Shown here one piece after another: positions 7,672-28,430 of a stretch of DNA of 32,000 nt. The notes below the pieces were generated by a model, which saw only the letters and a program-made list of their open reading frames with translations, made no database searches and was not told where the DNA came from. This DNA is from Chlamydiales bacterium. GTDB taxonomy: Bacteria > Chlamydiota > Chlamydiia > Chlamydiales > SM23-39. Each line of letters starts with the position of its first letter. Positions within the stretch are counted from its first letter, which is position 1. Position numbers and translations under genes: made by a program. The stretch covers positions 1,290,001 to 1,322,000 of the forward strand of contig OZ253438.1 of the NCBI GenBank assembly GCA_965261025.1, in the 5' to 3' direction.

Positions 7672-7756
7672 GATACTTTTAAAATTGTGGGATAAAGGCA
7701 GTTATGGTATCCTGTGCTGCAGCAAAACTTTTTAATTATCATGGAATGGGGAAAAT

Positions 7757-8125: not shown

Positions 8126-8135
8126 GGAGTGGGGT

Positions 8136-8561: not shown

Positions 8562-8582
8562 AAGATAGGAGTTTAAGTTTTT

Positions 8583-9680
8583 ATGACAGTCAAATATGGC
8601 AAATTTGAAATGCCAGAGAGAATTGAGATTGATGATGCTGGAAAGAGACCTAATTATGCCAGGTTTATTATAGCTCCTTTTTCTCGTGGTTTTGGTCATA
8701 CCATAGGGAATACTTTGCGAAGAATTATGTTAACCTCTTTAGAGGCTCCTGCCATTATTTCTCTTCGTATAGAGGGGGTTCCTCATGAGTATACAGCAAT
8801 TGAAGGGATTGTGGAAGATATGACCTCGATTGTTCTCAACTTGAAAGGAGCTCTTCTTCGAAAGCTCCCCCTTTCTGAGGACAAATACTCAAGAGAAAGA
8901 AGGATATTAGTAAAGGATCTAGAGGTTACAGCAGATCAAATCGAGCAAGGAGGCGGGGAGTATAGAGTTACTTTGGAAGATGTAGTATTAGGCTCTGACT
9001 TTGAGGTTATAAATAGAGAGCATCATCTTTTTACAGTAACCAAGCCTTTCCACAGAAAGATTACTTTAAAGATAGGGATAGGCAGGGGATATGTTCCTTC
9101 TGAAAAAATCCCTGATTTAGAAAGGCAGATTGATGAGATCATCTTAGATGCTTCTTTTAGTCCTGTGAGGCTTGTAAATTATTACGTAGAAAATACAAGA
9201 GTAGGTTCTAACACAGACTATGATCGTTTGATACTAGAAGTAGCCACAGATGGAAGAATTACGCCCAAGGAAGCGCTTGATTTTGCTTCTCAGGTGGCGG
9301 TTTTACATCTGGAGGTCTTCAAGAAGCTACAGACGCAAGAGCTTTCTTTTGATAAAGGGGAAGAAGAAGGAAATAAAGATCGGGATGAGATTTTAAAGAA
9401 GCTTGCTTTGAAAATTGATGAGATAGAGCTTTCGGTTCGCTCTACTAATTGTTTAGCTGGAGCGGATATTTCCACTATTGGAGAGTTGGTGGTGATGCCA
9501 GAATCAGAGATGCTTCGTTTCCGTAATTTTGGGAAAAAGTCTTTAACAGAGATCAAAGAAAAGTTAGAAGAGATGGGCTTAGGTTTGGGAATGGACTTAA
9601 GCAGGTATGGAATCAACCGGGACAATATTAAAACTATTATTAATTCATACTTAGAAGAGAAAGGGACTGGTGAAGCATGA
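8583..9680 (+). CDS. rpoA: DNA-directed RNA polymerase subunit alpha
   Basis: N-terminal domain (GHTIGNTLRRIMLTSLEAPAI) and C-terminal domain (IDEIELSVRSTNCLAGADISTIGELV). It follows rpsK directly, so no rpsD lies between them. Confidence 0.96.
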   Translation: MTVKYGKFEMPERIEIDDAGKRPNYARFIIAPFSRGFGHTIGNTLRRIMLTSLEAPAIISLRIEGVPHEYTAIEGIVEDMTSIVLNLKGALLRKLPLSEDKYSRERRILVKDLEVTADQIEQGGGEYRVTLEDVVLGSDFEVINREHHLFTVTKPFHRKITLKIGIGRGYVPSEKIPDLERQIDEIILDASFSPVRLVNYYVENTRVGSNTDYDRLILEVATDGRITPKEALDFASQVAVLHLEVFKKLQTQELSFDKGEEEGNKDRDEILKKLALKIDEIELSVRSTNCLAGADISTIGELVVMPESEMLRFRNFGKKSLTEIKEKLEEMGLGLGMDLSRYGINRDNIKTIINSYLEEKGTGEA

Positions 9681-10099
9681 GACACATAAAACACACCTTT
9701 AAGGTGGGCAGGACAGGTTCTCATAGAAGATGCATGTTAGCAAATATGTTAAAGTCTCTTATTTGGTATGAAAGGATAGAGACAACTCCTGTAAAGGCAA
9801 AAGAGCTTAGAAGATACGCAGATAGGATGGTGACCTTAGCGAAAAGAGGTACGGTGGATGCTAGGAGAAAAGCGATTTCTATGCTTCATATTCGCTACAA
9901 TCCAATGACTTCTAAAGAGAGGAGAAGATTCAAATCTCAGAAGGGGGATACCAGAAACTTAGACAGAAAGGTGGTTACCAAGCTTTTTGGTCCTGTTAAG
10001 GAAAGGTTTGTGGATCGCAAAGGGGGGTATACTCGCGTTCTTAAAAAGCAAGGGCGTATTGGGGATGCTGCTCCTGCGTGTCTCATTGAGTTTGTATAA
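9677..10099 (+). CDS. rplQ: 50S ribosomal protein L17
   Basis: MRHIKHTFKVGRTGSHRRCMLANMLKSLIWYERIETTPVKAKELRRYADRMVTLAK matches L17. ATGA overlap with rpoA. Confidence 0.96.
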   Translation: MRHIKHTFKVGRTGSHRRCMLANMLKSLIWYERIETTPVKAKELRRYADRMVTLAKRGTVDARRKAISMLHIRYNPMTSKERRRFKSQKGDTRNLDRKVVTKLFGPVKERFVDRKGGYTRVLKKQGRIGDAAPACLIEFV

Positions 10100-10106
10100 G
10101 GGTTTT

Positions 10107-10130
10107 CTTTTCTAAAAGAGAAGGCTTTTT
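10107..10130 (+). terminator. Candidate intrinsic terminator after rplQ
   Basis: cttttct (10107-10113) pairs with agagaag (10117-10123) across an aaa loop, with one G-U pair. A T-run follows at 10126-10130. The stem is weak and A/U-rich. Confidence 0.35.
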
Positions 10131-10221
10131 CCTGTCTTTTTTGCCTTCCTTTGTTTTTCACCATTCGGCTTTACTTTGATCTAAAATTTCTTTATGATGA
10201 GGAGAGTTTGGGAGGCTGGTT

Positions 10222-11232
10222 ATGCCGGTAAGACTTGCTATTAATGGGTTTGGAAGAATAGGGCGTTTAGTTTGTCGTATAGCTTGTAAAACCGAAGGGA
10301 TAGAACTGGTTGCTGTCAATGATTTAGCTGAGGTAGATCATCTGGCTTATTTACTTAAATATGATACTGTTCACGGGAGATTTGAGGGAGAGGTTTCCTA
10401 TGAAGAAAACTTTCTCATAGCAGGAGGGAAAAAAATAGCGGTTTATCAGGAGAAAGAACCAGAGAAGCTTCCTTGGAGGTCTTTGCAGGTAGATTACGTA
10501 GTTGAGTCTACGGGGAAATTTCGAAAAAAAGAAGAGCTAGAAAAGCATCTCAAGGCGGGAGCAAAAAGAGTGCTCCTTTCTGCTCCTGGAAAAGGCGAAG
10601 GGATTCCTACTTACGTAGTGGGAGTAAATCATAGAGAGTATGATGCTCAAAAAGAGCAGATCCTATGCAATGCTTCCTGTACCACAAATTGCTTAGCTCC
10701 TCTCGTTAAGGTTTTATGGGATCATTTTGGCATTGAAGAAGGGCTTATGACTACAGTTCACTCGCTTACGGCAAGTCAGCCTACTGTAGACGGGCCTTCG
10801 GAGAAAGATTGGAGGGGAGGAAGGGCTGCTGGGTATAACATTATACCTTCCTCTACGGGTGCTGCTAAGGCGGTGGTGGAGTGTCTTCCTGAAATGAAAG
10901 GCAAAATTACCGGTATGGCCTTTCGGGTTCCTTGTCTTGATGTTTCTGTGGTGGATTTGACAGTTCGGTTAAAAAAGAAAACTTCTTATGAGGAGATTTG
11001 TAAGGTGATAAGACAGGCCTCAGAAAAGGAAATGAAAGGAATCATAGAATATACAGAAGAGGAAGTAGTCTCTTCTGATTTTATAGGCAGTTCTAGCTCC
11101 TGTATTTTTGATAAAAAAGCAGGGATATCTCTTAACCCGTGCTTTTATAAGTTAGTGGCATGGTACGACAATGAAATGGCTTATGCGCATCGTTTGATTG
11201 ATCTGATATGTCACATGGCATCTAAAGAGTAA
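10222..11232 (+). CDS. gap: Glyceraldehyde-3-phosphate dehydrogenase
   Basis: NGFGRIGR Rossmann motif, active-site SCTTNCLAP, and WYDNEMAY near the C-terminus. Confidence 0.96.
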
Positions 11233-13519: not shown

Positions 13520-13603
13520 ATGCCTTTACAATCCAAAAGCTATTTAAGATTTGGTTGTGTTTTTTTAGGGCTATTTTATGTTTTTTCCTTTCCTGTTCAT
13601 GCA
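13520..13603 (+). other. Sec signal peptide of the autotransporter (aa 1-28)
   Basis: Basic n-region (K6, R10), hydrophobic core FGCVFLGLFYVFSF, and a VHA|T cleavage-like site. Confidence 0.7.
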
Positions 13604-16600
13604 ACAGATTTTACCGTAACTAATACGAATGATTCTGGAGCAGGTTCTCTCAGAAATGCCATAGATTCTGCCAATAGTGCTTCTGGTGGGTCTCATCAGG
13701 TGTTATTTCAAGTGGATCTTTCTGGAACCATTACGCTTCAAAGCTCTCTTCCCACTATTACAACTAAGATAATAACTATAGCAGGACCTTCTTCGGGATC
13801 TATCATTATTGATGGGGATAGTACCCATCAGGGATTTTTTATAGAAGCAGATGTGGTTGTAGCAATTAGCAATTTAAGTTTACAAAACATGAGGGCCAAG
13901 GGAGGAAATGGAGGGCCTGGGAGAAGTGGTGGAGGAGGAGCTTTGGGAGCGGGGGGAGCTATTTTCGTAGAAAGTGGAGCCGATGTTTCTATTTCATCGG
14001 TTGCTTTTGGAAGTTGCAGTGCAGTCGGAGGAGATGGTGGAACAGCAAATACAGGAATTCGTTTTAGTGGAGGAGGAGGAGGAGGAGGAATGAGAAATGC
14101 CCCAGGAGGAGATGTAACACAATCTTTAGTAAGCAACATTGGAGGAGGGGGTGGTGGTGGACTAGAGGGTAGTGGAGGAAATGCCCAAAGTGGGGGATCA
14201 GGAGGAGGAGGAAAAAGCAATAGAGGGGGAGATTGTCTTTCTTTAGCATTGATTACGGACGTTGGAGGAGGAGGGGGTGGCGGTTCAGGAGAAAATCCAG
14301 GAGAAACTGGGGATATAATTCCTGGAGGAAACGGGGGAGATGGTTTTGAATCTTCCTCTGGTGGTCAAGGAGGAACAACAGCAGGACAGGATGGTGCTTT
14401 AGGTACGAGTGGAGGAGGGGGTGGTGGCGGTGCATCAAACATTGTAGGGGCTAGCGGCTCTGGAGGTTCTGGCTCAACTCCTGGGGGAGGAGGGGGAGGA
14501 GCCGGAACAACGTTATTATCAACAGGCTCGACAACCTCTGGTACTGGAGGAGGAGGAGGTAAGTATGGAGGAGGTGGAGGAGGGGGCGGAGCTCTTACAA
14601 GTATAAGCGCTTCTGTTACAGCGGGTAGTGGAGGAAATGGAGGATATGGAAGTGGAGGGGGCGGAGGCGGTGGAGCTCTTGTGGCTGCGGGTATTGGTAG
14701 TGCAACAGGAGGTTCTGGAGGAAATAGTACATTTGGAGGAGGCGGAGGAGGGGGAGGTATTGGATTTGGAGTTACCAGTGGAGGAAATGGAGGATTTGGA
14801 GGAGGAGGGGGTGGAAGTGGAGGTTCAACAGGTTTGGGAGGAACTGCAGGCTTTGGAGGAGGCAATGGAGGAAATAGTTCGAATAGAGGGGGAGGAGCTG
14901 GTGCAGGACTAGGAGGTGCTATTTTTATTGAGGGTAGTGGCTTAGTTACCTTTTCAGGAAGTGGGACGTTGTTTTCTTCCAATTCTACTACGGCAGGAAC
15001 AGGAAGTGATGGTGGAGCAGATGGGACTGCAAGTGGAGATGACTTATTTATTCAATCAGGGGCAGAGATTGTTTTTGCTGTTACCGATACCGTAACAATA
15101 GGCAGTGATATTGCAAGTAATCAATCATCAGGAGGAAGTTTTTCCAAATCAAACACGGGTACACTTAACTTAACAGGAAATAATACCTTTACAGGGAATA
15201 TTTCTGTATCAGGGGGGACTTTATCTATAATTAGTGATAATGCGTTAGGTGTTTCTACCAATGCGGTATCGATAAGTTCAGGAGCAGTACTAAATCTTTC
15301 TTCTGATATGAGCTCTTCTAGAGCTTTGACATTGGGATCTGGGGGAGGAGTTTTAAATATATCTCCTTCATTTACGACTACATGGTCTGGGAATATTTCC
15401 GAATCTGCTGTGGCAGGATTCACTAAAGATGGAACAGGAATTCTCACTTTATCAGGCACAAATACTTATAGTGGAGGAACCAATATCAATGCAGGAACAT
15501 TACGTATTGCAAATGATAATTTACTTGGGAGTGTAGGAGGAGGAGTTACTTTTGGAGGAGGGACTTTACATACTACAGCTACCCTTTCTACTGGAAGAAG
15601 TATTGCCCTATCAGGAAATGGCACTTTTGAGGTAGACACCTCTACGAGTCTAACCTGTAGTGGAGCTATTAGTGGTAGTGGGCTGTTAACAAAGTTGGGA
15701 AGTGGCAATCTCATCTTGACAGGCTCTAACAGCTATACAGGGGGAAATGTTGTTTCAGCAGGGGTTTTACAGGGAGATACAACTAATATCTTAGGAGATA
15801 TAGCCAATGCAGGATCAGTGGTATTTGATCAGGGAAGCACTGGAACGTTTTCAGGGGATATTTCCGGAGCGGGCTCTGTTACCAAACAAGGAGCAGGGAC
15901 ACTGATCCTTTCAGGAAGTAATAGCTATAGCGGGGGAACTACGATTTCAGCGGGAGCTTTACAAGGAGATACAACAAGCTTAACCGGAAATATTACTAAT
16001 AGTGGTTCCTTAGTGTTTGATCAGGAATCTCTCGGAACCTTTTCAGGAGATATTTCGGGGACAGGTTCTGTAAGAAAACAAGGAACGGGAATGTTAATTT
16101 TTTCAGGAAGCAATAGCTACAGTGGGGGATTTACCATTTCGGAAGGAGCTTTACAAGGAGATACAACAAGCTTAACCGGGAATATTACTACTAGTGGTTC
16201 CTTAGTGTTTGATCAAGGAAGTACTGGAACGTTCTCGGGGGATATTTCCGGGACAGGTTCTCTTACTAAGCAGGGAACAGGCGTTCTCATTTTATCAGGC
16301 ACAAATAGCTATAGCGGAGGAACCAATATCAATGCAGGAACATTATGTATTGCAAACGATAGTTTACTAGGGGATATAGGAGGAGGAATTACTTTTGGAG
16401 GCGGAAATTTAAATACTACAGCTACCCTTTCTACTGGAAGAAGTATTGCCTTATCAGGAAATGGCACTTTTGAGGTAGATACTTCTACGAGTCTAACCTG
16501 TAGTGGAGCTATTAGTGGTAGTGGACTGTTAACAAAGTTGGGAAGTGGGAATCTTATCTTGACAGGCTCTAACAGCTATACAGGGGGAAATGTTGTTTCA

Positions 16601-19600
16601 GCAGGGGTTTTACAAGGAGACACAGGTAGCATTTTAGGAAATATTGCAAATACAGGATCGGTAATCTTTAATCAAGGAACTACTGGAGCATTTTCGGGGG
16701 ATATTTCCGGAACAGGCTCCATTACGAAACAAGGAGCAGGGACACTGATCCTTTCAGGAAGTAATAGCTATAGCGGGGGAACTACGATTTCAGCGGGAGC
16801 CCTCCAAGGAGATACAACAAGCTTAACCGGGAATATTACTAATAGTAGTTCCTTAGTATTTGATCAGGAATCTCTCGGAACCTTTTCAGGAGATATTTCC
16901 GGAACGGGCTCCGTTACCAAACAAGGAGCAGGGACACTAATCCTTTCAGGAAGTAATAGCTATAGCGGGGGAACTACGATTTCGGTAGGGGCTTTACAAG
17001 GAAATACAACAAGCTTGACAGGAGATATAACCAATAATAGCTCTTTGGTTTTTAATCAAATTAGTACTGGGACTTTTTTGGGGGATATTTCCGGGACGGG
17101 TTCGGTTACTAAGCGAGGAACAGGCGTTCTCATTTTATCAGGCACAAATACTTATAGTGGAGGAACCAATATCAATGCAGGAACATTACGTATTGCAAAC
17201 GATAGTTTACTTGGGAGTGGAGAGGGGGGAGTTACTTTTGGAGGCGGAAATTTAAATACTACAGACACATTTTCTACTGCGAGAAATATTGCTTTATCAG
17301 GAAATGGGGCTTTTGAAGTAGATGCTTCTACAAGTCTAACCTGTAGTGGAGATATTGGTGGTAGTGGGTCGTTAACAAAACTGGGAAGCGGGAATCTTAT
17401 CTTGACAGGCTCTAACAGTTATACCGGGGGAAATATTGTTTCTGCAGGAATTTTACAGGGAGATGCAGGTAGTATTTCGGGGAATATAGCTAATGCAGGA
17501 TCTATTGTATTCAATCAAGAATCTCTCGGAACCTTTTCGGGAGATATTTCAGGGATAGGCTCTGTTACGAAACAAGGGGCGGGGACACTAATCCTTTCAG
17601 GAAGTAATAGCTACAGCGCGGGAACCACAATTTCAGCAGGGACTTTGCAAGGAGATACAACGAGCTTGACAGGAGATATAACCGATAATGCTTCTTTGGT
17701 TTTTACACAAAGTAGTACTGGGACTTTTTTGGGGGATATTTCCGGGACAGGCTCTGTTACCAAACAAGGAGCAGGGACATTAATCCTTTCAGGAAGTAAT
17801 AGCTATAGCGCGGGAACTACGATTTCAGCAGGAGCTCTCCAGGGAAATACAGCAAGCTTAGTAGGAAATATTACCAATAATAGCTCTTTAATATTTGATC
17901 AAGGAACTACCGGAACCTTTTCGGGGGATATTTCCGGGACAGGTTCCGTTACAAAGCAGGGAACAGGCGTTCTCATTTTATCAGGCACAAATACTTATAG
18001 TGGAGGAACCAATATCAATGCGGGAGTGTTGCGTATTGCAAATGATAATTTACTGGGGGATATAGGAGGAGGAGTTACTTTTGGAGGAGGGACTTTACAT
18101 ACTACAGCTACCCTTTCTACTGGAAGAAGTATTGCCTTATCAGGAAATGGCACTTTTGAGGTAAATACCTCTACGAGTTTAACCTGTAGTGGAGCTATTA
18201 GTGGTAGTGGACTGTTAACAAAACTGGGAAGTGGCAATCTCATCTTGACAGGCTCTAACAGCTATACGGGAGGAAATGTTGTTTCAGCAGGAGTTTTGCA
18301 AGGAGATACAAATAGTATCTTAGGAGATATAGCCAATGCAGGATCGGTGGTATTTGATCAGGGAAGCAGTGGGACTTTCTCGGGAGATATTTCCGGAACG
18401 GGTTCCGTTACCAAGCAAGGAGCAGGGACATTAATCCTTTCAGGAAGTAATAGCTATAGCGCGGGAACTACGATTTCAGCGGGGGCTTTGCAAGGAAATG
18501 CAAACAGTATAGTGGGAAATATCACTAACAATAGCTCTTTAATATTTGATCAGGGAACTACCGGAACCTTTTCAGGAAATATCTCCGGGACAGGCTCTGT
18601 CACCAAGCAAGGAGTGGGAACCTTAACTTTTTCAGGAAGTAATAGTTATAGCGGAGGAACTACCATTTCAGGGGGAGCCCTGCAAGGGAATACAGGTACC
18701 ATAGCAGGAAATATTACCAACAATAGCTCTTTAATATTTGATCAGGGAAGCAATGGGACGTTTTCAGGGGATATTTCCGGAACGGGTTCCGTTACCAAGC
18801 AAGGAGCAGGGACATTAATCCTTTCAGGAAGTAATAGCTATAGCGGAGGAACTACCATTTCAGGGGGAGCCCTACAAGGGAATACAGGTACCATAGCGGG
18901 AAATATTACCAACAATAGCTCTTTAATATTTGATCAGGGAACTACCGGAACGTTTTCAGGGGATATTTCCGGGACAGGCTCTGTTACGAAACAAGGAGCA
19001 GGAAGACTTATTTTAGGAGGCAGCAGCAGCTACACCGGGGGGACATCCCTAAATGCTGGAATTTTACAGGTATTCAGTGGGAGCGCTCTAGGAAATAGCA
19101 TAGGAGAAATTGATTTTGCAGGGGGATCTTTGAACACGACTGGAACTTTTACCTTACCACATAATGTTTCGTTATCTTCTGAGGGGATATTTGAAGTGGA
19201 CACTTCGACAACTTTAACCTGTAGCGGTGTTATCAGTGGTAATGGATCTTTGACAAAGCTTGGAAATGGCAGCTTGGTTCTGACTGGATCTAATACTTAT
19301 TTGGGTGGAGCTTCTGTTTCACAAGGGGTTTTGGAAGGTAATACGACAAGTCTTTTCGGTAATACTGTGAATAATGCCGTGCTACGTTTTAACCAGAATT
19401 TTTCAGGATCTTATGGAGGGATTGTTACAGGAACAGGGACGTTAGTTAAAACAGGTTCCGGAAAAAGTATTTTTTCAGGAAATCTTACGCAGAATTTGTT
19501 TTCTGTAGAAGCAGGGACAATGACTGTGAATGGGCAAGTTACAGGTCCAGTTCAAATAGCCTCTTCCGCAGTTTTAGAAGGAAACGGTAGAATAGTAGGT

Positions 19601-21055
19601 AACGTAAACAATAACGGAATCATAGCAGCAGGGAACTCCACTACTTTGGATATACAAGGAGATCTTTCTATGGAAACCGGAAGCTCTTTGAATGTAGTAG
19701 CAGCACCTGATAGTCCCACTCTTCTTGCAGTTACAGGAGAAACATCCATAGGTGATGATACTTCTTTAGTCATATCCTTAGCAGATGCAGATTATAACGC
19801 AGATACTTCTGTTCCCATTTTACAATCAGATGGGGGAATTATTGGTAAATTTAGTGAAGAACTCAATAATATGCCCCTTTTGGGTTTATCGGTTTTATAT
19901 TCACCTACATCTATGGCTTTAGCTTTTTCTCCTGAGGATTTTTCCTCCGTAGCAGAAGGAGAAGATGCAGTAGTATTGGCCAATTATCTAGATGAAATTC
20001 CTTCTAGTGAAATAAATAGTGACTTGCAGCGAGTTATTAATCAGTTATATTCTCTGCCAAGCAGTGCAGAACTGTCTTCTGCTTTGGATCAATTGCAGCC
20101 AGTACAGTTTAGTGGTTTTTCTCTGGCCCAAGAGGAAATTTCTGTAGCTTTATCCCAAAATATTTTTCGTCGAATAGAAGAATTAGTAAACCAACGGGCA
20201 TGTGGACATTTTTGTTCAGGTAAAAGATTTCTTTGGGAAAATTTATTTTATGTGGGCTCTAAACAGAAGAAAGTCTCTGAACACGTTCCTTTCACCACAG
20301 ATACAGAAGGGGTAATTCTTGGAGGAAATGGAACTATTTCGGAGGAGATCATCTTAGGACTTGGCTCTGCTTTTTCTAATACGAATATCGCTTGGAAAGA
20401 AGATAGAGGTAAAGGACAAACTTTGACCGGATATTTATTTATTTATGGGACAGGGTCTTTTTCTCCTGGCTTTATTCGGTGGAATTTTATGGGTGAGTTG
20501 AGTCATTTTCAGGCAAGGAGACGTATTCAGTTTGCTACTATTCACCGTCAAGCAAATCATTCTAATAACGGTCATGGATTTTCTGGATATATAGACTTTG
20601 GCATCTTGGGAAGAAAACACAGAGCTTTTGCAGTGAACCCTTTTGCTAGTATCAATTCTGCCTGGTTTTGGGAAAATTCATACCAAGAAGAGGAGGCAGA
20701 AAGTATAAGTTTATCGGTTCGCAAAAGGAGATTAAATCTTTGGAGATTTGAGGTGGGTTTAGAGCTCTCCGGCTGTTTTGAAACAAAAAAGGCTACTATT
20801 TCTCCGAACTGTAAAGTATTTTGTGCTAAAGAAGTAAGAACTCTTGGAAAAACCTTTACGGCTAGATTTACTTCCGTAGAGCCCTCTTTTAGGGTAACTG
20901 GATTTAATCCCAACAGAGATTATCTCGGTTTTGAGACATATCTAGACGCGTGTTTATTAGATAAATTATTATCGATTCGTTTAGGAGTAAATGGTCAGTT
21001 TGCTAAAAAATACCAACAATATGGTGGAGAACTAAACATAGGACATCATTTTTAA
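13520..21055 (+). CDS. Giant autotransporter adhesin (2511 aa): signal peptide, beta-helix cap, Gly-rich region, PATR-type repeat array, C-terminal beta-barrel
   Basis: Signal peptide MPLQSKSYLRFGCVFLGLFYVFSFPVHA|TD. N-terminal VTNTNDSGAGSLRNAI cap motif. GGAIFV/GGAIFI motifs plus FSSN. Dozens of G.G.L.LSG.N.Y.GGT.I..G.L repeats. ALDQLQP linker. The C-terminal ~290 aa have alternating beta-strand character and end in ...NIGHHF (terminal Phe). Confidence 0.9.
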   Translation: MPLQSKSYLRFGCVFLGLFYVFSFPVHATDFTVTNTNDSGAGSLRNAIDSANSASGGSHQVLFQVDLSGTITLQSSLPTITTKIITIAGPSSGSIIIDGDSTHQGFFIEADVVVAISNLSLQNMRAKGGNGGPGRSGGGGALGAGGAIFVESGADVSISSVAFGSCSAVGGDGGTANTGIRFSGGGGGGGMRNAPGGDVTQSLVSNIGGGGGGGLEGSGGNAQSGGSGGGGKSNRGGDCLSLALITDVGGGGGGGSGENPGETGDIIPGGNGGDGFESSSGGQGGTTAGQDGALGTSGGGGGGGASNIVGASGSGGSGSTPGGGGGGAGTTLLSTGSTTSGTGGGGGKYGGGGGGGGALTSISASVTAGSGGNGGYGSGGGGGGGALVAAGIGSATGGSGGNSTFGGGGGGGGIGFGVTSGGNGGFGGGGGGSGGSTGLGGTAGFGGGNGGNSSNRGGGAGAGLGGAIFIEGSGLVTFSGSGTLFSSNSTTAGTGSDGGADGTASGDDLFIQSGAEIVFAVTDTVTIGSDIASNQSSGGSFSKSNTGTLNLTGNNTFTGNISVSGGTLSIISDNALGVSTNAVSISSGAVLNLSSDMSSSRALTLGSGGGVLNISPSFTTTWSGNISESAVAGFTKDGTGILTLSGTNTYSGGTNINAGTLRIANDNLLGSVGGGVTFGGGTLHTTATLSTGRSIALSGNGTFEVDTSTSLTCSGAISGSGLLTKLGSGNLILTGSNSYTGGNVVSAGVLQGDTTNILGDIANAGSVVFDQGSTGTFSGDISGAGSVTKQGAGTLILSGSNSYSGGTTISAGALQGDTTSLTGNITNSGSLVFDQESLGTFSGDISGTGSVRKQGTGMLIFSGSNSYSGGFTISEGALQGDTTSLTGNITTSGSLVFDQGSTGTFSGDISGTGSLTKQGTGVLILSGTNSYSGGTNINAGTLCIANDSLLGDIGGGITFGGGNLNTTATLSTGRSIALSGNGTFEVDTSTSLTCSGAISGSGLLTKLGSGNLILTGSNSYTGGNVVSAGVLQGDTGSILGNIANTGSVIFNQGTTGAFSGDISGTGSITKQGAGTLILSGSNSYSGGTTISAGALQGDTTSLTGNITNSSSLVFDQESLGTFSGDISGTGSVTKQGAGTLILSGSNSYSGGTTISVGALQGNTTSLTGDITNNSSLVFNQISTGTFLGDISGTGSVTKRGTGVLILSGTNTYSGGTNINAGTLRIANDSLLGSGEGGVTFGGGNLNTTDTFSTARNIALSGNGAFEVDASTSLTCSGDIGGSGSLTKLGSGNLILTGSNSYTGGNIVSAGILQGDAGSISGNIANAGSIVFNQESLGTFSGDISGIGSVTKQGAGTLILSGSNSYSAGTTISAGTLQGDTTSLTGDITDNASLVFTQSSTGTFLGDISGTGSVTKQGAGTLILSGSNSYSAGTTISAGALQGNTASLVGNITNNSSLIFDQGTTGTFSGDISGTGSVTKQGTGVLILSGTNTYSGGTNINAGVLRIANDNLLGDIGGGVTFGGGTLHTTATLSTGRSIALSGNGTFEVNTSTSLTCSGAISGSGLLTKLGSGNLILTGSNSYTGGNVVSAGVLQGDTNSILGDIANAGSVVFDQGSSGTFSGDISGTGSVTKQGAGTLILSGSNSYSAGTTISAGALQGNANSIVGNITNNSSLIFDQGTTGTFSGNISGTGSVTKQGVGTLTFSGSNSYSGGTTISGGALQGNTGTIAGNITNNSSLIFDQGSNGTFSGDISGTGSVTKQGAGTLILSGSNSYSGGTTISGGALQGNTGTIAGNITNNSSLIFDQGTTGTFSGDISGTGSVTKQGAGRLILGGSSSYTGGTSLNAGILQVFSGSALGNSIGEIDFAGGSLNTTGTFTLPHNVSLSSEGIFEVDTSTTLTCSGVISGNGSLTKLGNGSLVLTGSNTYLGGASVSQGVLEGNTTSLFGNTVNNAVLRFNQNFSGSYGGIVTGTGTLVKTGSGKSIFSGNLTQNLFSVEAGTMTVNGQVTGPVQIASSAVLEGNGRIVGNVNNNGIIAAGNSTTLDIQGDLSMETGSSLNVVAAPDSPTLLAVTGETSIGDDTSLVISLADADYNADTSVPILQSDGGIIGKFSEELNNMPLLGLSVLYSPTSMALAFSPEDFSSVAEGEDAVVLANYLDEIPSSEINSDLQRVINQLYSLPSSAELSSALDQLQPVQFSGFSLAQEEISVALSQNIFRRIEELVNQRACGHFCSGKRFLWENLFYVGSKQKKVSEHVPFTTDTEGVILGGNGTISEEIILGLGSAFSNTNIAWKEDRGKGQTLTGYLFIYGTGSFSPGFIRWNFMGELSHFQARRRIQFATIHRQANHSNNGHGFSGYIDFGILGRKHRAFAVNPFASINSAWFWENSYQEEEAESISLSVRKRRLNLWRFEVGLELSGCFETKKATISPNCKVFCAKEVRTLGKTFTARFTSVEPSFRVTGFNPNRDYLGFETYLDACLLDKLLSIRLGVNGQFAKKYQQYGGELNIGHHF
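13900..14920 (+). repeat. Low-complexity GGN-codon (poly-Gly/PGRS-like) region within the autotransporter
   Basis: About 340 codons dominated by Gly runs (GGGGGGG, GGNGG, GGSGG) separated by short variable segments. Includes (GGA)7 at 14069-14089. Bounded by the two GGAIF(V/I) motifs. Boundaries are approximate. Confidence 0.9.
15140..19550 (+). repeat. Array of ~32-aa autotransporter-associated beta-strand (PATR-like) repeats organised as 192-nt (64-aa) double units
   Basis: 192-nt spacing measured twice: 15872 vs 16064 (GSVTKQG / GSVRKQG) and 18651 vs 18843 (gcggaggaac). Consensus is G(T/A)G.LILSGSNSYSGGTTISAGALQG......G.I.N..SL.F.Q...GTFSGDISG. Outer boundaries are approximate. Confidence 0.85.
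15431..18802 (+). repeat. Four tandem in-frame copies of an 843-nt (281-aa) super-repeat
   Basis: The string ggaggaaccaatatcaatgc recurs at 15473, 16316, 17159 and 18002, exactly 843 nt apart. ggaacag unit starts lie at 15431 and 16274. Confidence 0.93.
20000..21052 (+). other. Linker plus autotransporter beta-barrel translocator domain (approximate)
   Basis: SAELSSALDQLQPVQFSGFSLAQEE helix/linker motif, then amphipathic strand-like segments. C-terminal ...GGELNIGHHF ends in an aromatic residue, typical of BAM substrates. Confidence 0.75.
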
Positions 21056-22341: not shown

Positions 22342-23757
22342 TTAACAGATAGTCTTATTATCTCGAACTGCTTTCTTAAAAGAGTTTCCTAAGAAAAGAG
22401 CCACAATGAACCATAGAACCAAAAGAGGGGCACATAAAATAAGACTTAAGGTTAAATAATAAGATCTACCTACAAGCATACCAAAAGTGTTTTGTAGAGG
22501 ACTTAAAGACATATTGAAGATAGAGCCTGCCTGCTTGGAAGATCGGGATCCAAAAGTTTCTATCCAGGCTTGTGCTTTAAATTTTACGTCTGGAGTAGTC
22601 GGGATGTAGAGCTGCTTTAAGGCAGGGCCGTTTAAAGCATAGTTGATTGCCTTAGACCCAACCATCAAACCAAAAAGGAAAGAAAGAGAATCCAAGGTCA
22701 CAAAACCAAAAAGCGCAAAACCTACAATAATAGGCATTAAGGATAAAGCCGTTTTTATACCTAGAAAACGGGTAATATTACTAATCCCTAAAAGCAGACA
22801 CGACAAAGATATGACATTTACAATAGACCCGTAAATGCTTAGGTAATTGCTCAAGGCAACTCCTGAATAGACCGATCCAGCAGCTAGTTTAAAATTAAAA
22901 TCGAATATAGTAACTGCCACTTCATAAATAAAATTGGAAGCAAAAATACACAAAAGATATCGATTCTTTACAAGAAGTTTTAATCCTTCCAAAAAACCGG
23001 GTTCTTGTTTTTTTTCTACTGTTTTTTCATTCCCTCCATGGAAGGCCTGAAGAAGATCTTTAGGAGTTTTTTTTAAAAAGTAGCGGATCATAGGGATAAT
23101 ACAAAGAATGAAAAGGCCCAGGAGAAATATAGAAAGAGAGTCGGTAAGTAGTTTCAATCTGTGAGGGAGCCCCCCTATTCCATAAGGGAAAAGAATGCCT
23201 CCTATTTGTCCAATAGCTACCACCAAGGGAAATCCTCTTTTTGCATGGGAGGGTTCTGTAGTATCCGCTGCAAAAGCCCAAAATAAAGCTACCATCAAAG
23301 AACCAAAGCTTTCCACAAAGAGATACCAAAAATAGCCAATCGCTTGCGTACTCAAAGATCCTAAAAAAGATCCTCTAGCAAGCTGTTCAGAAGAAGCTTG
23401 GAGGAAAAACATTAAAAGACTCATCAGTAAAATGGCAATGCCATAAAAACAAGGTAAGATAATAAGCATCTTCTCTCTGGAAGTTTTTTCTATGAGTTTA
23501 GTGTAAAACATAACCAGAGGTAGAAGAGCTATAACGGAAATAGTTTTAGCAAAGGGGAGTTGGTATTTACCCACGAGATGTATAAAAATAGAGTCCTTCA
23601 AAGGGCGAAGAGTCCAGTAAGCCCCTATGATCAGAGCAAAAATGAGGCCCATTCTTAGAAATTTCTTAAACTCTTCTCTCTCAAAGGTTCCAAAATTAAA
23701 ACGGCAAACCCATTGAAAAAAATCCAGAAGACCTTTTTTTTGTTTCACGAAAACCAT
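22342..23757 (-). CDS. Nucleotide transporter of the NTT/TLC (ATP:ADP antiporter, Npt) family
   Basis: Colinear with recalled chlamydial Npt1: [12 protein letters not shown] vs [53 protein letters not shown] vs [80 protein letters not shown] vs [41 protein letters not shown]. Substrate is unknown. Confidence 0.85.
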   Translation of the reverse strand: [471 protein letters not shown]

Positions 23758-23865: not shown

Positions 23866-25047
23866 TCATTTTTGAATCTTTTTAGGGTTTTTCTTAAGTC
23901 TTTCTAGTTTTTTTTGTAGTTTAGACTCTCTCTTTTCTGTCTTGACCCGGATCTCTCCTGGAGGAAGAGTAGGGGTAAATTTTTGTAAAGAGGCATATTT
24001 TTTTAAGACTTTGTAACAATAAAGGCAGCAGTGTTCAGGCAAAAGACTCTCCTGAGCAAGCTTCCTTCCCTGCATAGCAATTTTTTTTGCTTCTGCATCA
24101 TTTTGTTTGCACCATTCGATTTTTTCTATGAGATCACTTAGATCCTCCTCTATAGGGACATAGTGAACCCAGGGCTTTAGAGGATAAAAGTACCACATTT
24201 TATTTTTAGATTTCTGCTTTAAAACAGTACAATTAGACAAAAGCCTCCACTGAAGACCTGGGTATGTGGCAGTATGCCCGTCTACATTCACTTGATACTT
24301 AAATCTTAAGTGTTCCCTGACAGATAAAAAGGGCTTATGAGGATCAAATCCTGTGTTACGAATAATCCTTTGCACAGAAGTTTCAAGCCAATTAGTCCCT
24401 GCATTAAGGTGATGAGGATATACGCTAGATAAATAACATAACTTTCCTCTAGGGGTTTCAAAAAATCCCCTTGGAGAGTAGTCATACTGGTAGCCTTGAA
24501 GGCCTCCCCGCCATATAGCAGTAGGAATTTTGCTTTCCCAAGGAAGCTCTTTACTGGTCTGCTCCACTAAGATAGAGTTGTAAGTCCAGTCATAGGCTTC
24601 GGAGCAGTGCTCCGGATCTGTCCGAGTAGGGTCAAAGTTCCAATCTGCAAAATAGATGACATGGGTAAAATCTTCGTGTTTCGTGCTGGCTAATACGGGT
24701 CCATCTACAGTAGGGGGATTTCTTTCTCCTCTGGGGCCTCGAACAAAACCATCTTCCACCAAATAAAGAAACTCCACATCGGGTATCGTGTATTTTCGGC
24801 AAAGAACTGACAAAAGGTTATGAGTTTTTCCTGAGGGTCCATAGACTTTATTATCAATGATCTTAAAGCGAACATAACGGTGCCATTGGGGAGAGGCTTT
24901 CTCTATCATCTCCAGAGTAATCCCAGAAGAAAAGGGGGAGAAATCTTTTTCGATTGCCTCGTCCATCCAATCGTTAGGGCCGGCCCAGGACAAAGAGCAG
25001 AAAAAAAGAAAGAAAGAAAAAAAACAGCGCTTCATGAAAAACCTCAA
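23866..25047 (-). CDS. GT90/CAP10-domain glycosyltransferase, POGLUT1 (Rumi)-like protein O-glucosyltransferase homologue with an N-terminal signal peptide
   Basis: Colinear with recalled human POGLUT1 (392 aa): [17 protein letters not shown] vs [29 protein letters not shown] vs [34 protein letters not shown] vs [39 protein letters not shown] vs VKANDDVAQEIAERGSQ. The ORF-track start is TTG at 25047 (TTGA overlap with the upstream stop). The ATG at 25035 has gagg 6 nt upstream and gives [19 protein letters not shown]. Confidence 0.85.
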   Translation of the reverse strand: [393 protein letters not shown]

Positions 25048-25835
25048 GAATTTAATTTGTCATATAATTTATAGAAAACAGGCTTGCCTTTTCCTCCATT
25101 TCCATGGAAGATACTCGGATAAGTATTCGTTTCTTTTAGGCGAACTTCCCCTTTTTTTACTTTTAATTCCTTGAGATCTACATCAAATAGACTGCAAAAT
25201 ATCTCGCAGGAGGTATCCAGATAAATCAGGTCTGAGTGGTTTACATAATAAGTTTGATATAGAGCTTGATCACTGTGCATGCCAGGAAGAATTTCGGAGA
25301 TAACTTCTTCTAACATAGCCTTTAAAGCGCCTGCATACCCTATGAATCCTCCTGCATTCAAATACTTAAAAGAAGTACGGGCCTTTTGAAAGTAGGGTTT
25401 TAAATGGGTTTGGGGATAGCAATTTCTTTCTGTGGAGAAGACAATAGGAGCTTTCTTTTCCAAGAATTTCTCAACAATCTTTTTCTGTCCTGCACAAAAA
25501 AAGACATCACAGGCATCCACGCAGACAACAATATCTTCGTCAGGAAGAGTCTTGATAAATTCATAAAACCAAATCGGTTTGGTAACATTTCCTCCCCAAG
25601 AAGTAGCTTCCTTTCCTATGTGGGTAAGGGAGATTCCGTGTTTTTCAGCAGAGTCAAAAAGACGAGACATGTAGGTATAAGGATCTTTACCGGGATAACA
25701 TCCTACAGTGCAGAAGTGAGCTTTTCCCTTTTTTTCTTTCCAGATATTCTTCTGTCTTATCAAGGAGGTATTATTGTGCGCAAAGAGAGAGGGGAAAAAA
25801 AACCCTAAAATAAGAACAAAACGGTACCATTTCAT
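25044..25835 (-). CDS. Lysyl hydroxylase 3 (PLOD)-type N-terminal glycosyltransferase-domain homologue, signal-anchored, with no hydroxylase domain
   Basis: Matches to the recalled LH3 GT domain: DEDIVVCVDACDVFF vs REDMIIMFVDSYDVIL (DxxD conserved); IVFSTERNCYPQ vs LLFSAESFCWPE; FKYLNAGGFIGYAG vs KRFLNSGGFIGFAT; SDQALYQTYY vs DDQLFYTRLY; YPSIFHGNGG vs LPIVVHGNG. The ATG at 25835 forms an ATGA overlap with the upstream stop, with ggggga SD-like sequence upstream. The ORF track begins at TTG 25850. N-terminus MKWYRFVLILGFFFPSLFA. Confidence 0.8.
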   Translation of the reverse strand: MKWYRFVLILGFFFPSLFAHNNTSLIRQKNIWKEKKGKAHFCTVGCYPGKDPYTYMSRLFDSAEKHGISLTHIGKEATSWGGNVTKPIWFYEFIKTLPDEDIVVCVDACDVFFCAGQKKIVEKFLEKKAPIVFSTERNCYPQTHLKPYFQKARTSFKYLNAGGFIGYAGALKAMLEEVISEILPGMHSDQALYQTYYVNHSDLIYLDTSCEIFCSLFDVDLKELKVKKGEVRLKETNTYPSIFHGNGGKGKPVFYKLYDKLNS

Positions 25836-26680
25836 GAATCTTTCCCCCAATTTTTTCCATCTAAATGAGTCACAAAAGGCCCCTCTCCATAAGATCCGTA
25901 CAAGAAGACCCCAAACTCTTTGTATTTATTAGGGTCTTTTACACAAGCATTTCGGATGGGGTGTGCTAGCTCCCATTCCATAGCAATGGGTCTATTTCCC
26001 ACTCGAGGGAAGACAAAAGTCTCGTAGTACTTTTTAGAGGTTAGGTGTTCATGGTCAGACCAGTTATAAGAGATACAAAGAGGAATATGAGAAGGACCTT
26101 CATAAGGAATGGCTGCTACTTGCGCTGTTCCATAAGGTATATTTTTTGCGCGAGTAAAGTGAACGTATTGGATAAAGGGGTTTCTTTCCATAGAGCTCAT
26201 AACTCCTTCTAGGTCCAAAGGTTTTTCCAAAACAAAATCATGTTGATGGACAAAGATAAAAGGAGTCTTTACAAAAGAAAGAGCCTCCCTTAAAGCCCCT
26301 GTTAAGTGGCCATGCTCTTTCAAAAAAACCAGCAAAGTATTCTTAAAATAGGGGCTCTCTTCTATAAGTTTTCTGCACCCTTTCTTATACCCCTCGTAAG
26401 CCGTTTTTAAGAAAACTCCCTTTCTCATTTCTAATGAGTAGAACTTTTTAGGTGGCTCATCAAAAACAATAATCTTTGGCATACTCTCAAAGCCAGGCTG
26501 CTGATACCAACTTTTAAAGGAGGTTTCTAAAAGCTCTGTACTAGGATGGCCAGGAACGGCGCTAGTATTGGTAATAAACGTGATTCGAGAAGAAGAAGAG
26601 TCTAGAGTGCCGTAAGTTTCTACGTTAATAGAAAACCCCGTAGAGAACCCTAAAAAGAATAAAAAAAGAAAAAACTTCAT
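25832..26680 (-). CDS. Secreted/anchored protein of unknown family, possibly a GT-A-fold (GT2-like) glycosyltransferase with a non-canonical QHD in place of DxD
   Basis: Signal peptide MKFFLFLFFLGFSTGFS. The layout resembles a GT-A fold: ITFITNTSAVPGHPSTELLETSFKS (beta1/alpha1), PKIIVFDEPP, HGHLTGALREALSFVKTPFIFVHQHDFVL (equivalent to N.G...ARN.G...A.G.YI.FLD.DD). GGAG SD lies 5 nt (catt-a spacing) upstream of the ATG. Family assignment is weak. Confidence 0.4.
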   Translation of the reverse strand: MKFFLFLFFLGFSTGFSINVETYGTLDSSSSRITFITNTSAVPGHPSTELLETSFKSWYQQPGFESMPKIIVFDEPPKKFYSLEMRKGVFLKTAYEGYKKGCRKLIEESPYFKNTLLVFLKEHGHLTGALREALSFVKTPFIFVHQHDFVLEKPLDLEGVMSSMERNPFIQYVHFTRAKNIPYGTAQVAAIPYEGPSHIPLCISYNWSDHEHLTSKKYYETFVFPRVGNRPIAMEWELAHPIRNACVKDPNKYKEFGVFLYGSYGEGPFVTHLDGKNWGKDS

Positions 26681-26901: not shown

Positions 26902-27762
26902 ATGGAGGAAGAAACCCCTATTCGGGGAGTAGTTTATGGTATCTTTATGGCCTTGGCTTATTCCCTCATGGCAATCTTTGTAAAACTTACCAAAGACACT
27001 CCGAATCAAGTTATCGTATTTTATCGCAGTATGATAGCTCTTTTTTTTATCTCTCCTTGGCTTTATAGGAAGAAAAACGAATTAGGAGGAAGGAAAAAGT
27101 ACCTTTACTGGATAAGAAGTTTATCAGCACTTTTTGCTGTATATTGCTATTTCTATAGCCTAAAGCACCTTTCTTTGTTAAACAGTATCCTCTTAGCTAA
27201 CACCGCACCTCTTTTTGTACCTTTAGTTATTTGGCTTTGGCTAAAAAAAAGAATTGCTACAAAAAGGATTCTTTCGATTTGTATAGGATTTCTGGGGGTA
27301 GTTCTCCTTTTGCAGCCCACTTCAAAAGGATGGGGCTTAGCTACCCTTATAGGGTTGGGGACAGGCCTTTTTTCCGCTATTGCCCTTGTAGGGGTAAGGC
27401 AATTAACCAAAACAGAAAAACCTCTTTCGATATTGTTTTATTTCTTTCTCCTTTCTGCTTTTCTCTCTTTTTTCCCCTTCGTGATAGGAGGGGAGCTTTT
27501 CCCGGAGAAGGGAGAAAGGCTCTACGTCTTAGCTACTGGCCTTATGTCAATAATCTATCAGTTTTTTATTACAAAGACCTATACCTCCCTCCCTCCCTCC
27601 AAGGCAGCGGGCTTTTTGTATCTTAGCCTAGTTTTTGGAGGCTTTTTCGACTGGATTTTATGGGGTAAGTTATTCACCTACAGTACATTGCTTGGGGTTA
27701 TTTTTGTAGCTGTGGGAGGATTTTTGACTCTTTATGAAAAGCCTAAGATATTTTTCAAATAA
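26902..27762 (+). CDS. EamA/DMT-superfamily transporter (10-TM, two EamA repeats)
   Basis: MEEETPIRGVVYGIFMALAYSLMAIFVKL..., typical EamA helices and the NTAPLFVPLVIWLWLKKR mid-protein junction. The ORF track starts at TTG 26854; the ATG at 26902 is preferred. Transcribed divergently from the GT operon. Confidence 0.8.
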   Translation: MEEETPIRGVVYGIFMALAYSLMAIFVKLTKDTPNQVIVFYRSMIALFFISPWLYRKKNELGGRKKYLYWIRSLSALFAVYCYFYSLKHLSLLNSILLANTAPLFVPLVIWLWLKKRIATKRILSICIGFLGVVLLLQPTSKGWGLATLIGLGTGLFSAIALVGVRQLTKTEKPLSILFYFFLLSAFLSFFPFVIGGELFPEKGERLYVLATGLMSIIYQFFITKTYTSLPPSKAAGFLYLSLVFGGFFDWILWGKLFTYSTLLGVIFVAVGGFLTLYEKPKIFFK

Positions 27763-27887: not shown

Positions 27888-28430
27888 ATGTCTAACCAAT
27901 TAGAAATAGCAAATCAAGTGGCTCCAAGCTATTTGGAGAGAGCTTCTTGGGGTCTTACAAGTGGGGCATGCCGAGCGGGATATACGCTTTTACCTGAAGT
28001 AAGAGAAGGAGTTTCTTATAAAAATATAGCAAAGGTAGCTGTATTAGGATACACTACTCTCCAGCTTGTTGCTATAGCTGCCATCGCTTTAAAATATGCC
28101 GCCTTAGTTGGGGCTTTTTATCTAGTTATGAACTCTTATCAAAAACAAAGTGCAACCAATCGTGTAATTCAAGACGTACAGGGTCATTCCCAAGAGCTTG
28201 TAGGAAATATAAACAAAATCATAGAACTACTAACTGTGAGGTTTGGTCTCATAGCTGTCTCACCTGCTCTTCAAGCTATCCAAGAACAATCAGAAAAGGT
28301 AATAGAAGAAAAAGAAAAACTAGAAGAAGAAAACGAAAAGTTAAAACAACAAATAAAAGAATTTGAAAATAGAATCTCCCAACAAAGAGACCTTTCTAAG
28401 ATTCTTTCTGCCGGATTTTTTGTTCAATAA
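27888..28430 (+). CDS. Hypothetical membrane protein with a bilobed hydrophobic domain and C-terminal coiled coil (Inc-like)
   Basis: VAVLGYTTLQLVAIAAIALKYAALVGAFYLVMNSY forms two hydrophobic lobes split by a short turn. The C-terminus EKVIEEKEKLEEENEKLKQQIKEFENRISQQ is heptad-like. This architecture is typical of chlamydial inclusion-membrane proteins; no sequence homologue was recognised. Confidence 0.45.
   Translation: MSNQLEIANQVAPSYLERASWGLTSGACRAGYTLLPEVREGVSYKNIAKVAVLGYTTLQLVAIAAIALKYAALVGAFYLVMNSYQKQSATNRVIQDVQGHSQELVGNINKIIELLTVRFGLIAVSPALQAIQEQSEKVIEEKEKLEEENEKLKQQIKEFENRISQQRDLSKILSAGFFVQ

Follow-up and report, generated by a model that had tools for sequence, protein, structure and literature searches.

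To our knowledge, bacteria almost never export soluble glycosyltransferases that use nucleotide sugars, because the periplasm contains no donors for them. Why, then, would a chlamydial genome carry three consecutive glycosyltransferase genes, each beginning with a predicted Sec signal peptide? The question is raised by a 32,000-nucleotide (nt) stretch of a Chlamydiales bacterium genome (assembly GCA_965261025.1, contig OZ253438.1, positions 1,290,001 to 1,322,000; hereafter, the window). The open reading frame (ORF) listing of the window contained, at 23866 to 26680, the consecutive minus-strand trio that an earlier note on this DNA had placed there and had taken for an operon of eukaryote-type glycosyltransferases; the genes are here called g1, g2, and g3. 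We lean, with modest confidence, toward the reading that g1-g2-g3 encode an extracytoplasmic glycosylation pathway that depends on uridine diphosphate (UDP)-sugars of the host and builds a short glycan initiated by glucose. The enzyme families are familiar; their export, combination, and lineage are unfamiliar.

Operon structure and conservation

The g1, g2, and g3 genes are translationally coupled. The stop codon of g1 and the start codon of g2 share an ATGA, the tight, operon-like overlap described in the earlier note, and the g2 stop codon is followed by the Shine-Dalgarno-preceded ATG of g3, also as described there, with a spacer of 8 nt (Table 1). Purine-rich, Shine-Dalgarno-like motifs lay 5' of each ATG, namely, GGAG (g1), GGGGGAAAG (g2), and GAGG (g3). 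A scan for consensus promoters and terminators found neither above background, with no terminator within or just after g1-g2-g3 and no terminator-like site between g3 and the downstream TLC-family transporter gene, and an Rfam search returned a tRNA as its sole match.

The closest relative, and the sole match in a scan of genome contigs, was the metagenome-assembled genome (MAG) GCA_964351495.1, in which the order ZnuA-ZnuC-ZnuB-L21-L27-Obg-unknown-EamA-(g1-g2-g2'-g3)-TLC reproduced the synteny of the window with g2 doubled; the tandem copies (L001:9098-10792) were 65% and 68% identical to the window g2, and both had predicted signal peptides. The short contig L060 carried g1-g2-g3 (identities of 53% for a partial g1, 52% for g2, and 64% for g3), and the short contigs L061 and L062 carried the g2-g3 pair (59% and 61%, respectively). 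Counting the window, the pair occurred in four lineages and the trio in three (window, MAG, and L060), all three with the 4-nt overlap of g1 and g2; the gap between g2 and g3 was 3 to 6 nt in the other three lineages, compared with 8 nt in the window. Because the gene order is kept in independent contigs, the arrangement is not due to chance. The module is nevertheless rare, since a metagenome scan added no further copies of the operon.

Enzyme families and active sites

The last gene, g3, matched Pfam Glyco_transf_90 (PF05686) with an E value of 3.7e-42 and 145.1 bits (cutoff, 24) over residues 27 to 369, and its sequence matches in the PDB were POGLUT2 (2e-28), POGLUT1 (1e-15), and Rumi (1e-12). 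An AlphaFold2 model built with 51 homologues (predicted local distance difference test [pLDDT], 92.9) was placed by Foldseek beside POGLUT1 (template modeling [TM] score, 0.70/0.76), POGLUT2 (0.69), and Rumi (0.70) at E values of about 1e-22, the next PDB fold following at 1e-5 with a TM score of 0.34. The numbering of the PDB chains was mapped onto the published residues of POGLUT1 and POGLUT2, enzymes that produce Glc-beta-O-Ser, with the motif GDWP/RDYP marking the catalytic base, the role assigned to POGLUT1 D133 and POGLUT2 D238 (PMC5543122, PMC13084666). The equivalent residue of g3, D95, was kept in 50 of the 51 aligned sequences, which comprised short prokaryote-type homologues and animal POGLUT2/3, and R176 (in WRG), R196 (POGLUT2 R316), and H291 (uracil contact) were invariant among them. 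By these results, g3 was shown to be a GT90 enzyme of the POGLUT type and GT-B fold that keeps the catalytic Asp, R176, R196, and the uracil-contacting His. The earlier description of g3 as a near-full-length POGLUT1/Rumi-like enzyme held for its length, family, and fold and needed amending in that the sequence is nearer to POGLUT2/3 than to POGLUT1.

Like POGLUT1/Rumi and POGLUT2/3 (KDELC1/2), g3 has the GT90 fold, a catalytic Asp, the Arg of WRG, an equivalent of R316, and the uracil-contacting His, together with a predicted N-terminal signal peptide such as is found on enzymes of the endoplasmic reticulum (ER) lumen. It differs in its low identity to animal POGLUTs (22 to 30%), in its length (389 amino acids versus about 500 in POGLUT2/3), in lacking the filamin domain (PF00630), KDEL, and the partner of a C153-C454-type disulfide, and in being encoded in a bacterial operon. 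Residues ~357 to 389 (window positions 23866 to 23964, minus strand) form a strongly basic, predicted helical tail, which was absent from the MAG orthologue; similar Lys/Arg-rich tails were seen in P0159, P0168, and P0175. The tail ends in -KKIQK, and a reading of it as KKXX or KDEL was ruled out.

The middle gene, g2, matched Pfam GT_PLOD (PF25342) with an E value of 8.8e-31 and 107.4 bits (cutoff, 27), and its best solved relatives were mimivirus R699 (3.4e-18) and human lysyl hydroxylase 3 (LH3, or PLOD3; 1.2e-13), both of them collagen galactosylhydroxylysyl glucosyltransferases. The R699 residues backed by mutagenesis are K62, E114, W118, N138, D162/D163/Q164, H216, and N218 (PMC12279948). 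Of these, E114 (the acceptor Glu), N138, D163-Q164, H216, and N218 (the last two being the His and Asn of HGNG) corresponded to E136, N160, D189-Q190, H244, and N246 of g2, all of which, along with D107 and D110 of the DxxD motif, were identical to the residues of R699/LH3. K86, in a GGxxxK motif, aligned with LH3 only, that position lying outside the R699 fragment. The g2 product was thus shown to be an LH3/R699-type retaining glucosyltransferase domain with intact Mn/UDP- and sugar-binding residues, as the earlier comparison with the glycosyltransferase domain of PLOD3 had proposed. It differs from LH3 and R699 in being a single 263-amino-acid domain without accessory or hydroxylase domains, in its predicted signal peptide, and in having no collagen context: no collagen-like, lysyl-hydroxylase, or GT25 gene was found in the window, which makes galactosyl-hydroxylysine (Gal-Hyl) an unlikely acceptor. 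Judged by sequence, neither g3 nor g2 has all that defines its animal counterpart, which for POGLUT2/3 includes an EGF-repeat acceptor.

With UDP-Glc as the donor and glucose as the acceptor, R699 produces free kojibiose, Glc-alpha1,2-Glc (PMC12279948), and this product, as well as an exported GH81 glucanase encoded in a related cluster described below, would suit a different role for the operon, namely, that the exported enzymes make or remodel free or polymeric carbohydrate of the periplasm or inclusion (kojibiose-type alpha-1,2-glucosides or glucan) and no glycoprotein. Fungal GT90 enzymes do act on glycans and not on proteins (e.g., Cryptococcus Cxt1). The closest characterized relatives of g3 are, however, protein O-glucosyltransferases, and the operon has no polymerase, flippase, or glycan export gene; we regard this role as very improbable.

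The first gene, g1, fell outside every curated model tested. It had no NCBIfam match and no Pfam match, the best Pfam hit being Glycos_transf_2 at 11.5 bits against a cutoff of 23.3 (E = 0.29). An exhaustive HMMER search nevertheless gathered a family of 738 cluster representatives at E values of ≤1e-3, with the motif T(I/V)ITTSP(I/V)PSHPST in an N-terminal strand, followed by QHD and HLDG; among 100 homologues, D74, H147, D148, E235, and H272 (in HLDG) were near invariant, and 16 of the 100 matched GT2, whether in the g1-like region or elsewhere in the protein. The AlphaFold2 model built with these 100 homologues (pLDDT, 91.7; predicted TM score, 0.88) had a GT-A core starting near residue 31. 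Its 329 PDB matches at E values of ≤1e-3 were, for all 50 listed, GT-A-fold proteins, mostly glycosyltransferases, and the top Foldseek neighbors were POMGNT1, B4GALNT1, SpsA, RmlT, TarP, and LH3, at TM scores of about 0.45 to 0.5 and identities of 10 to 14%. Top matches of the model in a set of viral structures were mostly generic GT2-like or GT-A-type proteins, and the alignment profile matched weakly to the GT-A-like N-terminal region of TagF and to B4GALNT1. With a confident model, GT-A-fold neighbors, and a motif at the DxD position, the modeling showed g1 to be, as the earlier note had supposed, a divergent GT-A enzyme, with Asp...His-Asp...His as its hallmarks.

Predicted export

Signal peptides were called by hydrophobicity and a (-3,-1) heuristic, with a positive n-region, an h-region of 7 to 17 residues, and small residues at -3 and -1 as the Sec criteria. 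All three proteins passed (Table 1), and by this heuristic the claim that each begins with a short basic and hydrophobic segment was borne out for all three. At 14 to 17 residues, the h-regions have the length typical of cleavable Sec signal peptides and are shorter than a stable membrane anchor requires. The N terminus of g1 was modeled as a low-pLDDT helix ahead of the GT-A core, and the mature N terminus of g3 is acidic. A signal-peptide-like N terminus was kept in the orthologues, including the closest g1 homologues. For GT_PLOD, a signal peptide was predicted in all four chlamydial orthologues with a complete N terminus and in none of 41 homologues from giant viruses, Bacteroidota, Acidobacteria, and Actinobacteria, which points to a relocation specific to the lineage and not to a trait of the family. 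The strict signal-peptide test was passed by 29 of 49 prokaryote-type GT90 homologues and, in the g1 family, by 12 of the 20 nearest relatives versus 42 of 131 more distant ones. Taken together, the sequences strongly suggested that g1, g2, and g3 are exported.

These signal peptides, together with the intact active sites, would also fit secreted effectors that leave by Sec and then by type II secretion or in vesicles and that, mimicking POGLUT and LH3, attach sugars to proteins or glycans of the host, in its cytosol or secretory pathway. Host compartments hold UDP-sugars, animal POGLUT2/3 are the closest nonchlamydial relatives of g3, and the exported sulfotransferases, methyltransferases, and prolyl 4-hydroxylase (P4H)-like oxygenase encoded on related contigs use metabolites available in the host, namely, 3'-phosphoadenosine-5'-phosphosulfate (PAPS), S-adenosylmethionine (SAM), and 2-oxoglutarate. 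Moreover, Chlamydia trachomatis sends sugar-metabolizing enzymes beyond its envelope (PMC4829429). We consider such effectors unlikely here, given that no secretion signal other than Sec was readable in the sequences and that g3 has neither the KDEL nor the filamin domain seen in POGLUT2/3.

Table 1. Features of the g1-g2-g3 operon and its flanking transporter genes, in window coordinates
Feature	Position	Strand	Description	Basis
g1	25832..26680	-	282 amino acids; predicted exported GT-A-fold glycosyltransferase; family without Pfam or NCBIfam model	
g2	25044..25835	-	263 amino acids from ATG; predicted exported LH3/R699-type GT_PLOD glycosyltransferase, catalytic domain alone	
g3	23866..25035	-	389 amino acids from ATG; predicted exported GT90 POGLUT-like GT-B glycosyltransferase, basic C-terminal tail	
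g1 stop/g2 start overlap	25832..25835	-	ATGA, 4 nt	
g2 stop codon and spacer	25036..25046	-	stop codon (25046-25044) and 8 nt ahead of the g3 ATG	
g1 signal peptide (predicted)	26627..26680	-	about residues 1 to 18, MKFFLFLFFLGFSTGFS before I; 16 uncharged residues after K2; cleavage after GFS	
g2 signal peptide (predicted)	25779..25835	-	about residues 1 to 19, MKWYRFVLILGFFFPSLFA before H; 14 uncharged residues after K2 and R5; cleavage after LFA	
g3 signal peptide (predicted)	24982..25035	-	about residues 1 to 18; 17 uncharged residues after K2 and R3; cleavage after SWA, before G	
g1 His147-Asp148	26237..26242	-	QHD, where GT-A enzymes have the DxD metal/nucleotide motif	Alignment, profile search
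g2 DxxD motif	25506..25517	-	D107-A-C-D110, Mn2+/UDP	Aligned with DTYD of R699 and DSYD of LH3
g3 Asp95	24751..24753	-	Equivalent of the catalytic base (POGLUT1 Asp133, POGLUT2 Asp238)	Alignment and residue mapping of GDWP
EamA/DMT-family transporter gene	26902..27762	+	Divergently transcribed; 64% identical to the MAG neighbor	Pfam EamA, 2.3e-28
TLC/NTT-family nucleotide transporter gene	22342..23757	-	Highly divergent; 108 nt downstream of g3	Pfam TLC, 8.9e-24

A proposed host-fueled pathway outside the cytoplasm

In the pathway that we favor for this uncultured, deep-branching chlamydia-like bacterium, three Leloir glycosyltransferases would leave the cytoplasm via Sec signal peptides and act in the periplasm or the inclusion lumen, with host UDP-sugars that reach that space as donors. 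In an energy parasite, host nucleotides would already cross the outer membrane toward inner-membrane NTT-type transporters, a highly divergent one of which is encoded directly after the operon, and because these host nucleotides of similar size must already make that crossing, the presence of UDP-sugars in the periplasm is plausible. UDP-Glc is present in the inclusion lumen of C. trachomatis (PMC4829429). On a single acceptor, the order of action would be g3, g2, and then g1: g3 would start the glycan by attaching Glc (or Xyl) in beta linkage to a Ser in an exported protein, g2 would lengthen it by an alpha-1,2-Glc, as R699 does on glucose, and g1 would contribute one more sugar. The outcome would be a short O-glycan comparable to the Xyl-Xyl-Glc-O-Ser trisaccharide of animals. 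The invariant pairing of g2 with g3 fits this chemical sequence, because POGLUTs make Glc-beta-O-Ser and R699 can glucosylate glucose at O2. The extracytoplasmic glycogen metabolism of C. trachomatis (PMC4829429) is similar in that chlamydial Leloir-type transfer takes place outside the cytoplasm with host UDP-glucose, as we infer for g1-g2-g3. It differs in that the glycogen enzymes are housekeeping enzymes exported by type III secretion, whereas those of the operon belong to ER/Golgi-like families, carry predicted Sec signal peptides, and are unconnected with glycogen.

Several points weigh against this pathway. Export, activity, donor, and acceptor are all predictions from sequence and models, the signal peptides were called by a heuristic, and sequential action on one acceptor is inferred only from the operon structure. 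We know of no free-living bacterium with nucleotide sugars in its periplasm, and their presence here is an assumption. In the active sites, POGLUT2 has three arginines that bind the diphosphate, and two of them have no counterpart in register in g3, where R310 aligns with G178 and R376 with P259. A basic residue occurs across the family at g3 position 264 (PGxxW[RK]) or at position 260 ([ST]RxxW[QE]), the two being mutually exclusive, which suggests that the charge of R376 may have been relocated, with R264 as the compensation in g3; G178 has no evident substitute. In g2, Tyr140 replaces Trp118 of R699, and Ser188 replaces Asp162. Also in g2, a Lys-rich stretch (residues 28 to 39) follows shortly after the hydrophobic segment and could hinder export or favor an N-out topology, a minor caveat. 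In addition, some g3 relatives lack a signal peptide, for example, both paralogues of Candidatus Rhabdochlamydia porcellionis at 31% identity (P0192 and P0198), although a third GT90 gene at the same locus does have one, and some g3 relatives lie in ordinary O-antigen-like clusters.

Gene neighborhood and related clusters

The operon is flanked by two transporter genes (Table 1). The divergently transcribed EamA gene belongs to the DMT superfamily, which includes the eukaryotic nucleotide-sugar transporters; an EamA gene was also found two genes from a GT90 gene in contig L057. The TLC gene scored 69.8 bits against TIGR00769, the NTP/NDP exchanger model with a cutoff of 387, and followed g3 in the MAG as well but not in L060 or L061. 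Neighbors of the operon in the window comprised ribosomal, Obg, Znu, EamA, TLC, and MFS genes. On the plus strand at 27888 to 28430 lies a gene for a protein of 180 amino acids that matched no family and is rich in Glu and Lys in its C-terminal half; the MAG has an unannotated ORF of 160 amino acids at this position. Elsewhere in the MAG, a few kilobases from the operon, a DUF6492 protein (L001:1714-2556) has a signal-peptide-like N terminus and may be another exported enzyme.

Farther away in the window (13520 to 21055, plus strand) is a gene for a 2,511-amino-acid autotransporter with 20 PATR repeats and 192-bp tandem DNA repeats (78 to 83% matches), whose Gly-rich N-terminal region raises the local GC content to 0.53 and the GC skew to 0.54. 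The earlier note had offered this giant neighbor as a possible glycosylation target. No such gene stands beside the operon in the MAG, so that synteny lends the suggestion no support.

Tandem glycosyltransferase genes are also the mark of bacterial lipooligosaccharide (LOS) and lipopolysaccharide (LPS) loci (Waa, and the GT25 enzymes Lic2A/LgtB), and relatives of g1 and g3 do occur beside GT25, GT2, GT11, and sugar-nucleotide genes. The operon could accordingly be an ordinary surface-glycan locus (LOS outer core, O-antigen, or capsule) whose products, held by uncleaved inner-membrane anchors, would face the cytoplasm and use bacterial nucleotide sugars to modify lipid-linked acceptors. For instance, the g3 relative P0163 (41%) is clustered with genes for an ABC transporter, an epimerase, GT1, GT2, DegT, and methyltransferases; GT25, a classical LOS glycosyltransferase family, adjoins GT90 in R. 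porcellionis; and the Lys-rich segment of g2 would suit a cytoplasmic orientation. In L060, the gene directly after GT90 (L060:2212-2766) encodes a sugar-phosphate nucleotidyltransferase (NTP_transferase, 1.4e-12) that has no signal peptide; its presence suggests a link of the module to nucleotide-sugar supply. Classical LOS enzymes are, however, cytoplasmic and have no signal peptide, whereas hydrophobic stretches of 14 to 17 residues with positive N-terminal flanks predict an N-in/C-out topology for the proteins studied here. Moreover, contig L056 separates the two kinds of enzyme, with signal-peptide-like N termini on GT90, GT11, and DUF1796, whereas the epimerase, GT2, DegT, and methyltransferases beside them have none. 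Near the operon, no lpx, waa, or kdt (lipid A/Kdo) genes were found, no NCBIfam LPS-core model matched g1, g2, or g3, and the trio did not have the makeup of a standard LPS/LOS core locus. We therefore hold a surface-glycan locus to be quite unlikely and retain the pathway outside the cytoplasm as the better account.

Related contigs carried larger sets of genes. An 18.6-kb Logan contig from SRR34706595 (L063:664-18238; L064 is a shorter copy) contained about 16 genes, encoding the GH81 glucanase, CitMHS, a P4H-like 2-oxoglutarate-Fe(II) oxygenase, three sulfotransferases, two tandem g1-like proteins, two methyltransferases, five GT90 paralogues, and one GT2; 13 of the 16 passed a hydrophobicity threshold for signal-peptide-like N termini, and the other three, all GT90 paralogues, fell just under it. 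By its sequence, this contig looks like an exported, Golgi-like enzyme island. Two more Logan contigs (L003:51-11005 and L004:697-10825) carried a g1 homologue (38%) among GT11, GT25, RXYLT1_C-like, Methyltransf_24, DUF1796, and unknown genes, with signal-peptide-like N termini in most, and the R. porcellionis locus (CP075585.1; L059:1611-6302) had the order GT90-GT25-Methyltransf_24-GT90, the first GT90 without a signal peptide and the second, like the methyltransferase, with one. These clusters suggest that the export of Golgi-like enzymes is broader than this operon, and the systematic export of cosubstrate-dependent enzymes implies that they act where host metabolites are available.

A wider version of the pathway, tentative and in our view more doubtful than probable, is that some chlamydia-like bacteria run a modification route resembling that of the ER and Golgi in their own periplasm or vacuole. 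Sec-exported enzymes of the GT90, LH3-type, new GT-A, GT11, GT25, and GT2 families would take part, joined in related genomes by exported sulfotransferases, SAM methyltransferases, and a prolyl-hydroxylase-like oxygenase, and host UDP-sugars, PAPS, SAM, and 2-oxoglutarate would diffuse in or enter through the flanking DMT/EamA and divergent NTT-type transporters.

Relatives and origin

The attribution of the operon to a chlamydial genome was upheld by its named relatives. Those of g3 were from a "Chlamydiales bacterium" (37%), a "Simkaniaceae bacterium" (32%), and R. porcellionis (two paralogues, 31%), and that of g1 was a protein of a Simkaniaceae MAG (36%) whose contig also encodes the chlamydial UPF0137 family, so that all named relatives of g1 and g3 were chlamydial. 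Conserved proteins tested from the ribosomal/SecY/RpoA region of the window (2782 to 9680) were all singletons at 90% identity among about 15 billion sequences, indicating a lineage without a close sequenced relative. In the match list of g3, about 50 short prokaryote-type homologues were followed by animal POGLUT2/3 at about 30% identity and E values of about 1e-30; GT90 is here an old and large family with many paralogues; its members are short and prokaryote-type, and those with a name are chlamydial.

The label "eukaryote-type" proved apt for g3, whose next relatives after the prokaryote-type proteins are the animal POGLUT2/3. It was weaker for g2, which has cytoplasmic bacterial and giant-virus homologues at about 30% identity, and was not specific for g1. 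Relatives of g2 at 25 to 36% identity came from giant-virus contigs, from Bacteroidota, Acidobacteria, and Actinobacteria, and from animals, and in a neighbor-joining tree with 100 bootstraps, the chlamydial clade had 100% support and its sister grouping only 15 to 23%. The third-codon-position GC content (GC3) of g1 to g3 was 0.35 to 0.385, compared with 0.31 to 0.44 in the ribosomal and other housekeeping genes of the window, and the overall GC content was likewise native. These values did not support recent horizontal transfer, so that of the proposed acquisition from a eukaryotic host or a giant virus, what stands is a plausible ancient exchange with either, the placement of g2 being as weakly supported as stated above.

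Two scans of viral contigs found no viral GT90 relatives; the giant-virus MAG L043 has a 25%-identical GT90 fragment 4 kb from a GT_PLOD gene. At the other bacterial GT_PLOD loci (Bacteroidota, Acidobacteria, and Actinobacteria), no g1 or GT90 neighbor was found. Among these, the Chitinophaga eiseniae homologue is cytoplasmic and lies between ORFs of 1,986 and 284 amino acids (L009:9953-11789). The Dyadobacter soli gene (L011:9995-13254) is directly upstream of, and slightly overlaps, an ORF of 833 amino acids with ABC-transporter motifs recognized by eye, a possible peptide-glycosylation context. Many viral GT_PLOD homologues in IMG/VR contigs (L017 to L039; e.g., L019:~9340-11170) were about 610 to 640 amino acids long and had at their N terminus what by appearance is the GT25-type signature MKKIVISLKRRQDRK, none with a signal peptide; they look like GT25-GT_PLOD fusions, which would mirror two consecutive steps of collagen glycosylation.

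Novelty and biological meaning

The author of the earlier note had known of no described bacterial system of this composition. In agreement, the searchable literature yielded no paper on chlamydial GT90 or PLOD-type enzymes or on an operon of exported Leloir glycosyltransferases. A conserved trio with predicted signal peptides in an obligate intracellular lineage would mean either host-fueled glycosylation outside the cytoplasm or a new class of secreted, host-mimicking effectors, and g1 to g3 offer clonable candidates for asking if chlamydiae glycosylate proteins of their envelope or of the host and by what means. The enzymology of GT90/POGLUT and LH3/R699 is extended to bacteria, and a GT-A family of about 740 cluster representatives, for which Pfam and NCBIfam have no model, is defined. 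The ER/Golgi-like route, if true, would be distinct from both lipid-linked (PglB/PglL) and cytoplasmic (HMW1C/NGT) glycosylation and could account for old reports of glycosylated chlamydial envelope proteins. The larger exported, Golgi-like clusters in related contigs suggest that the window exemplifies something more widespread that has yet to be described.

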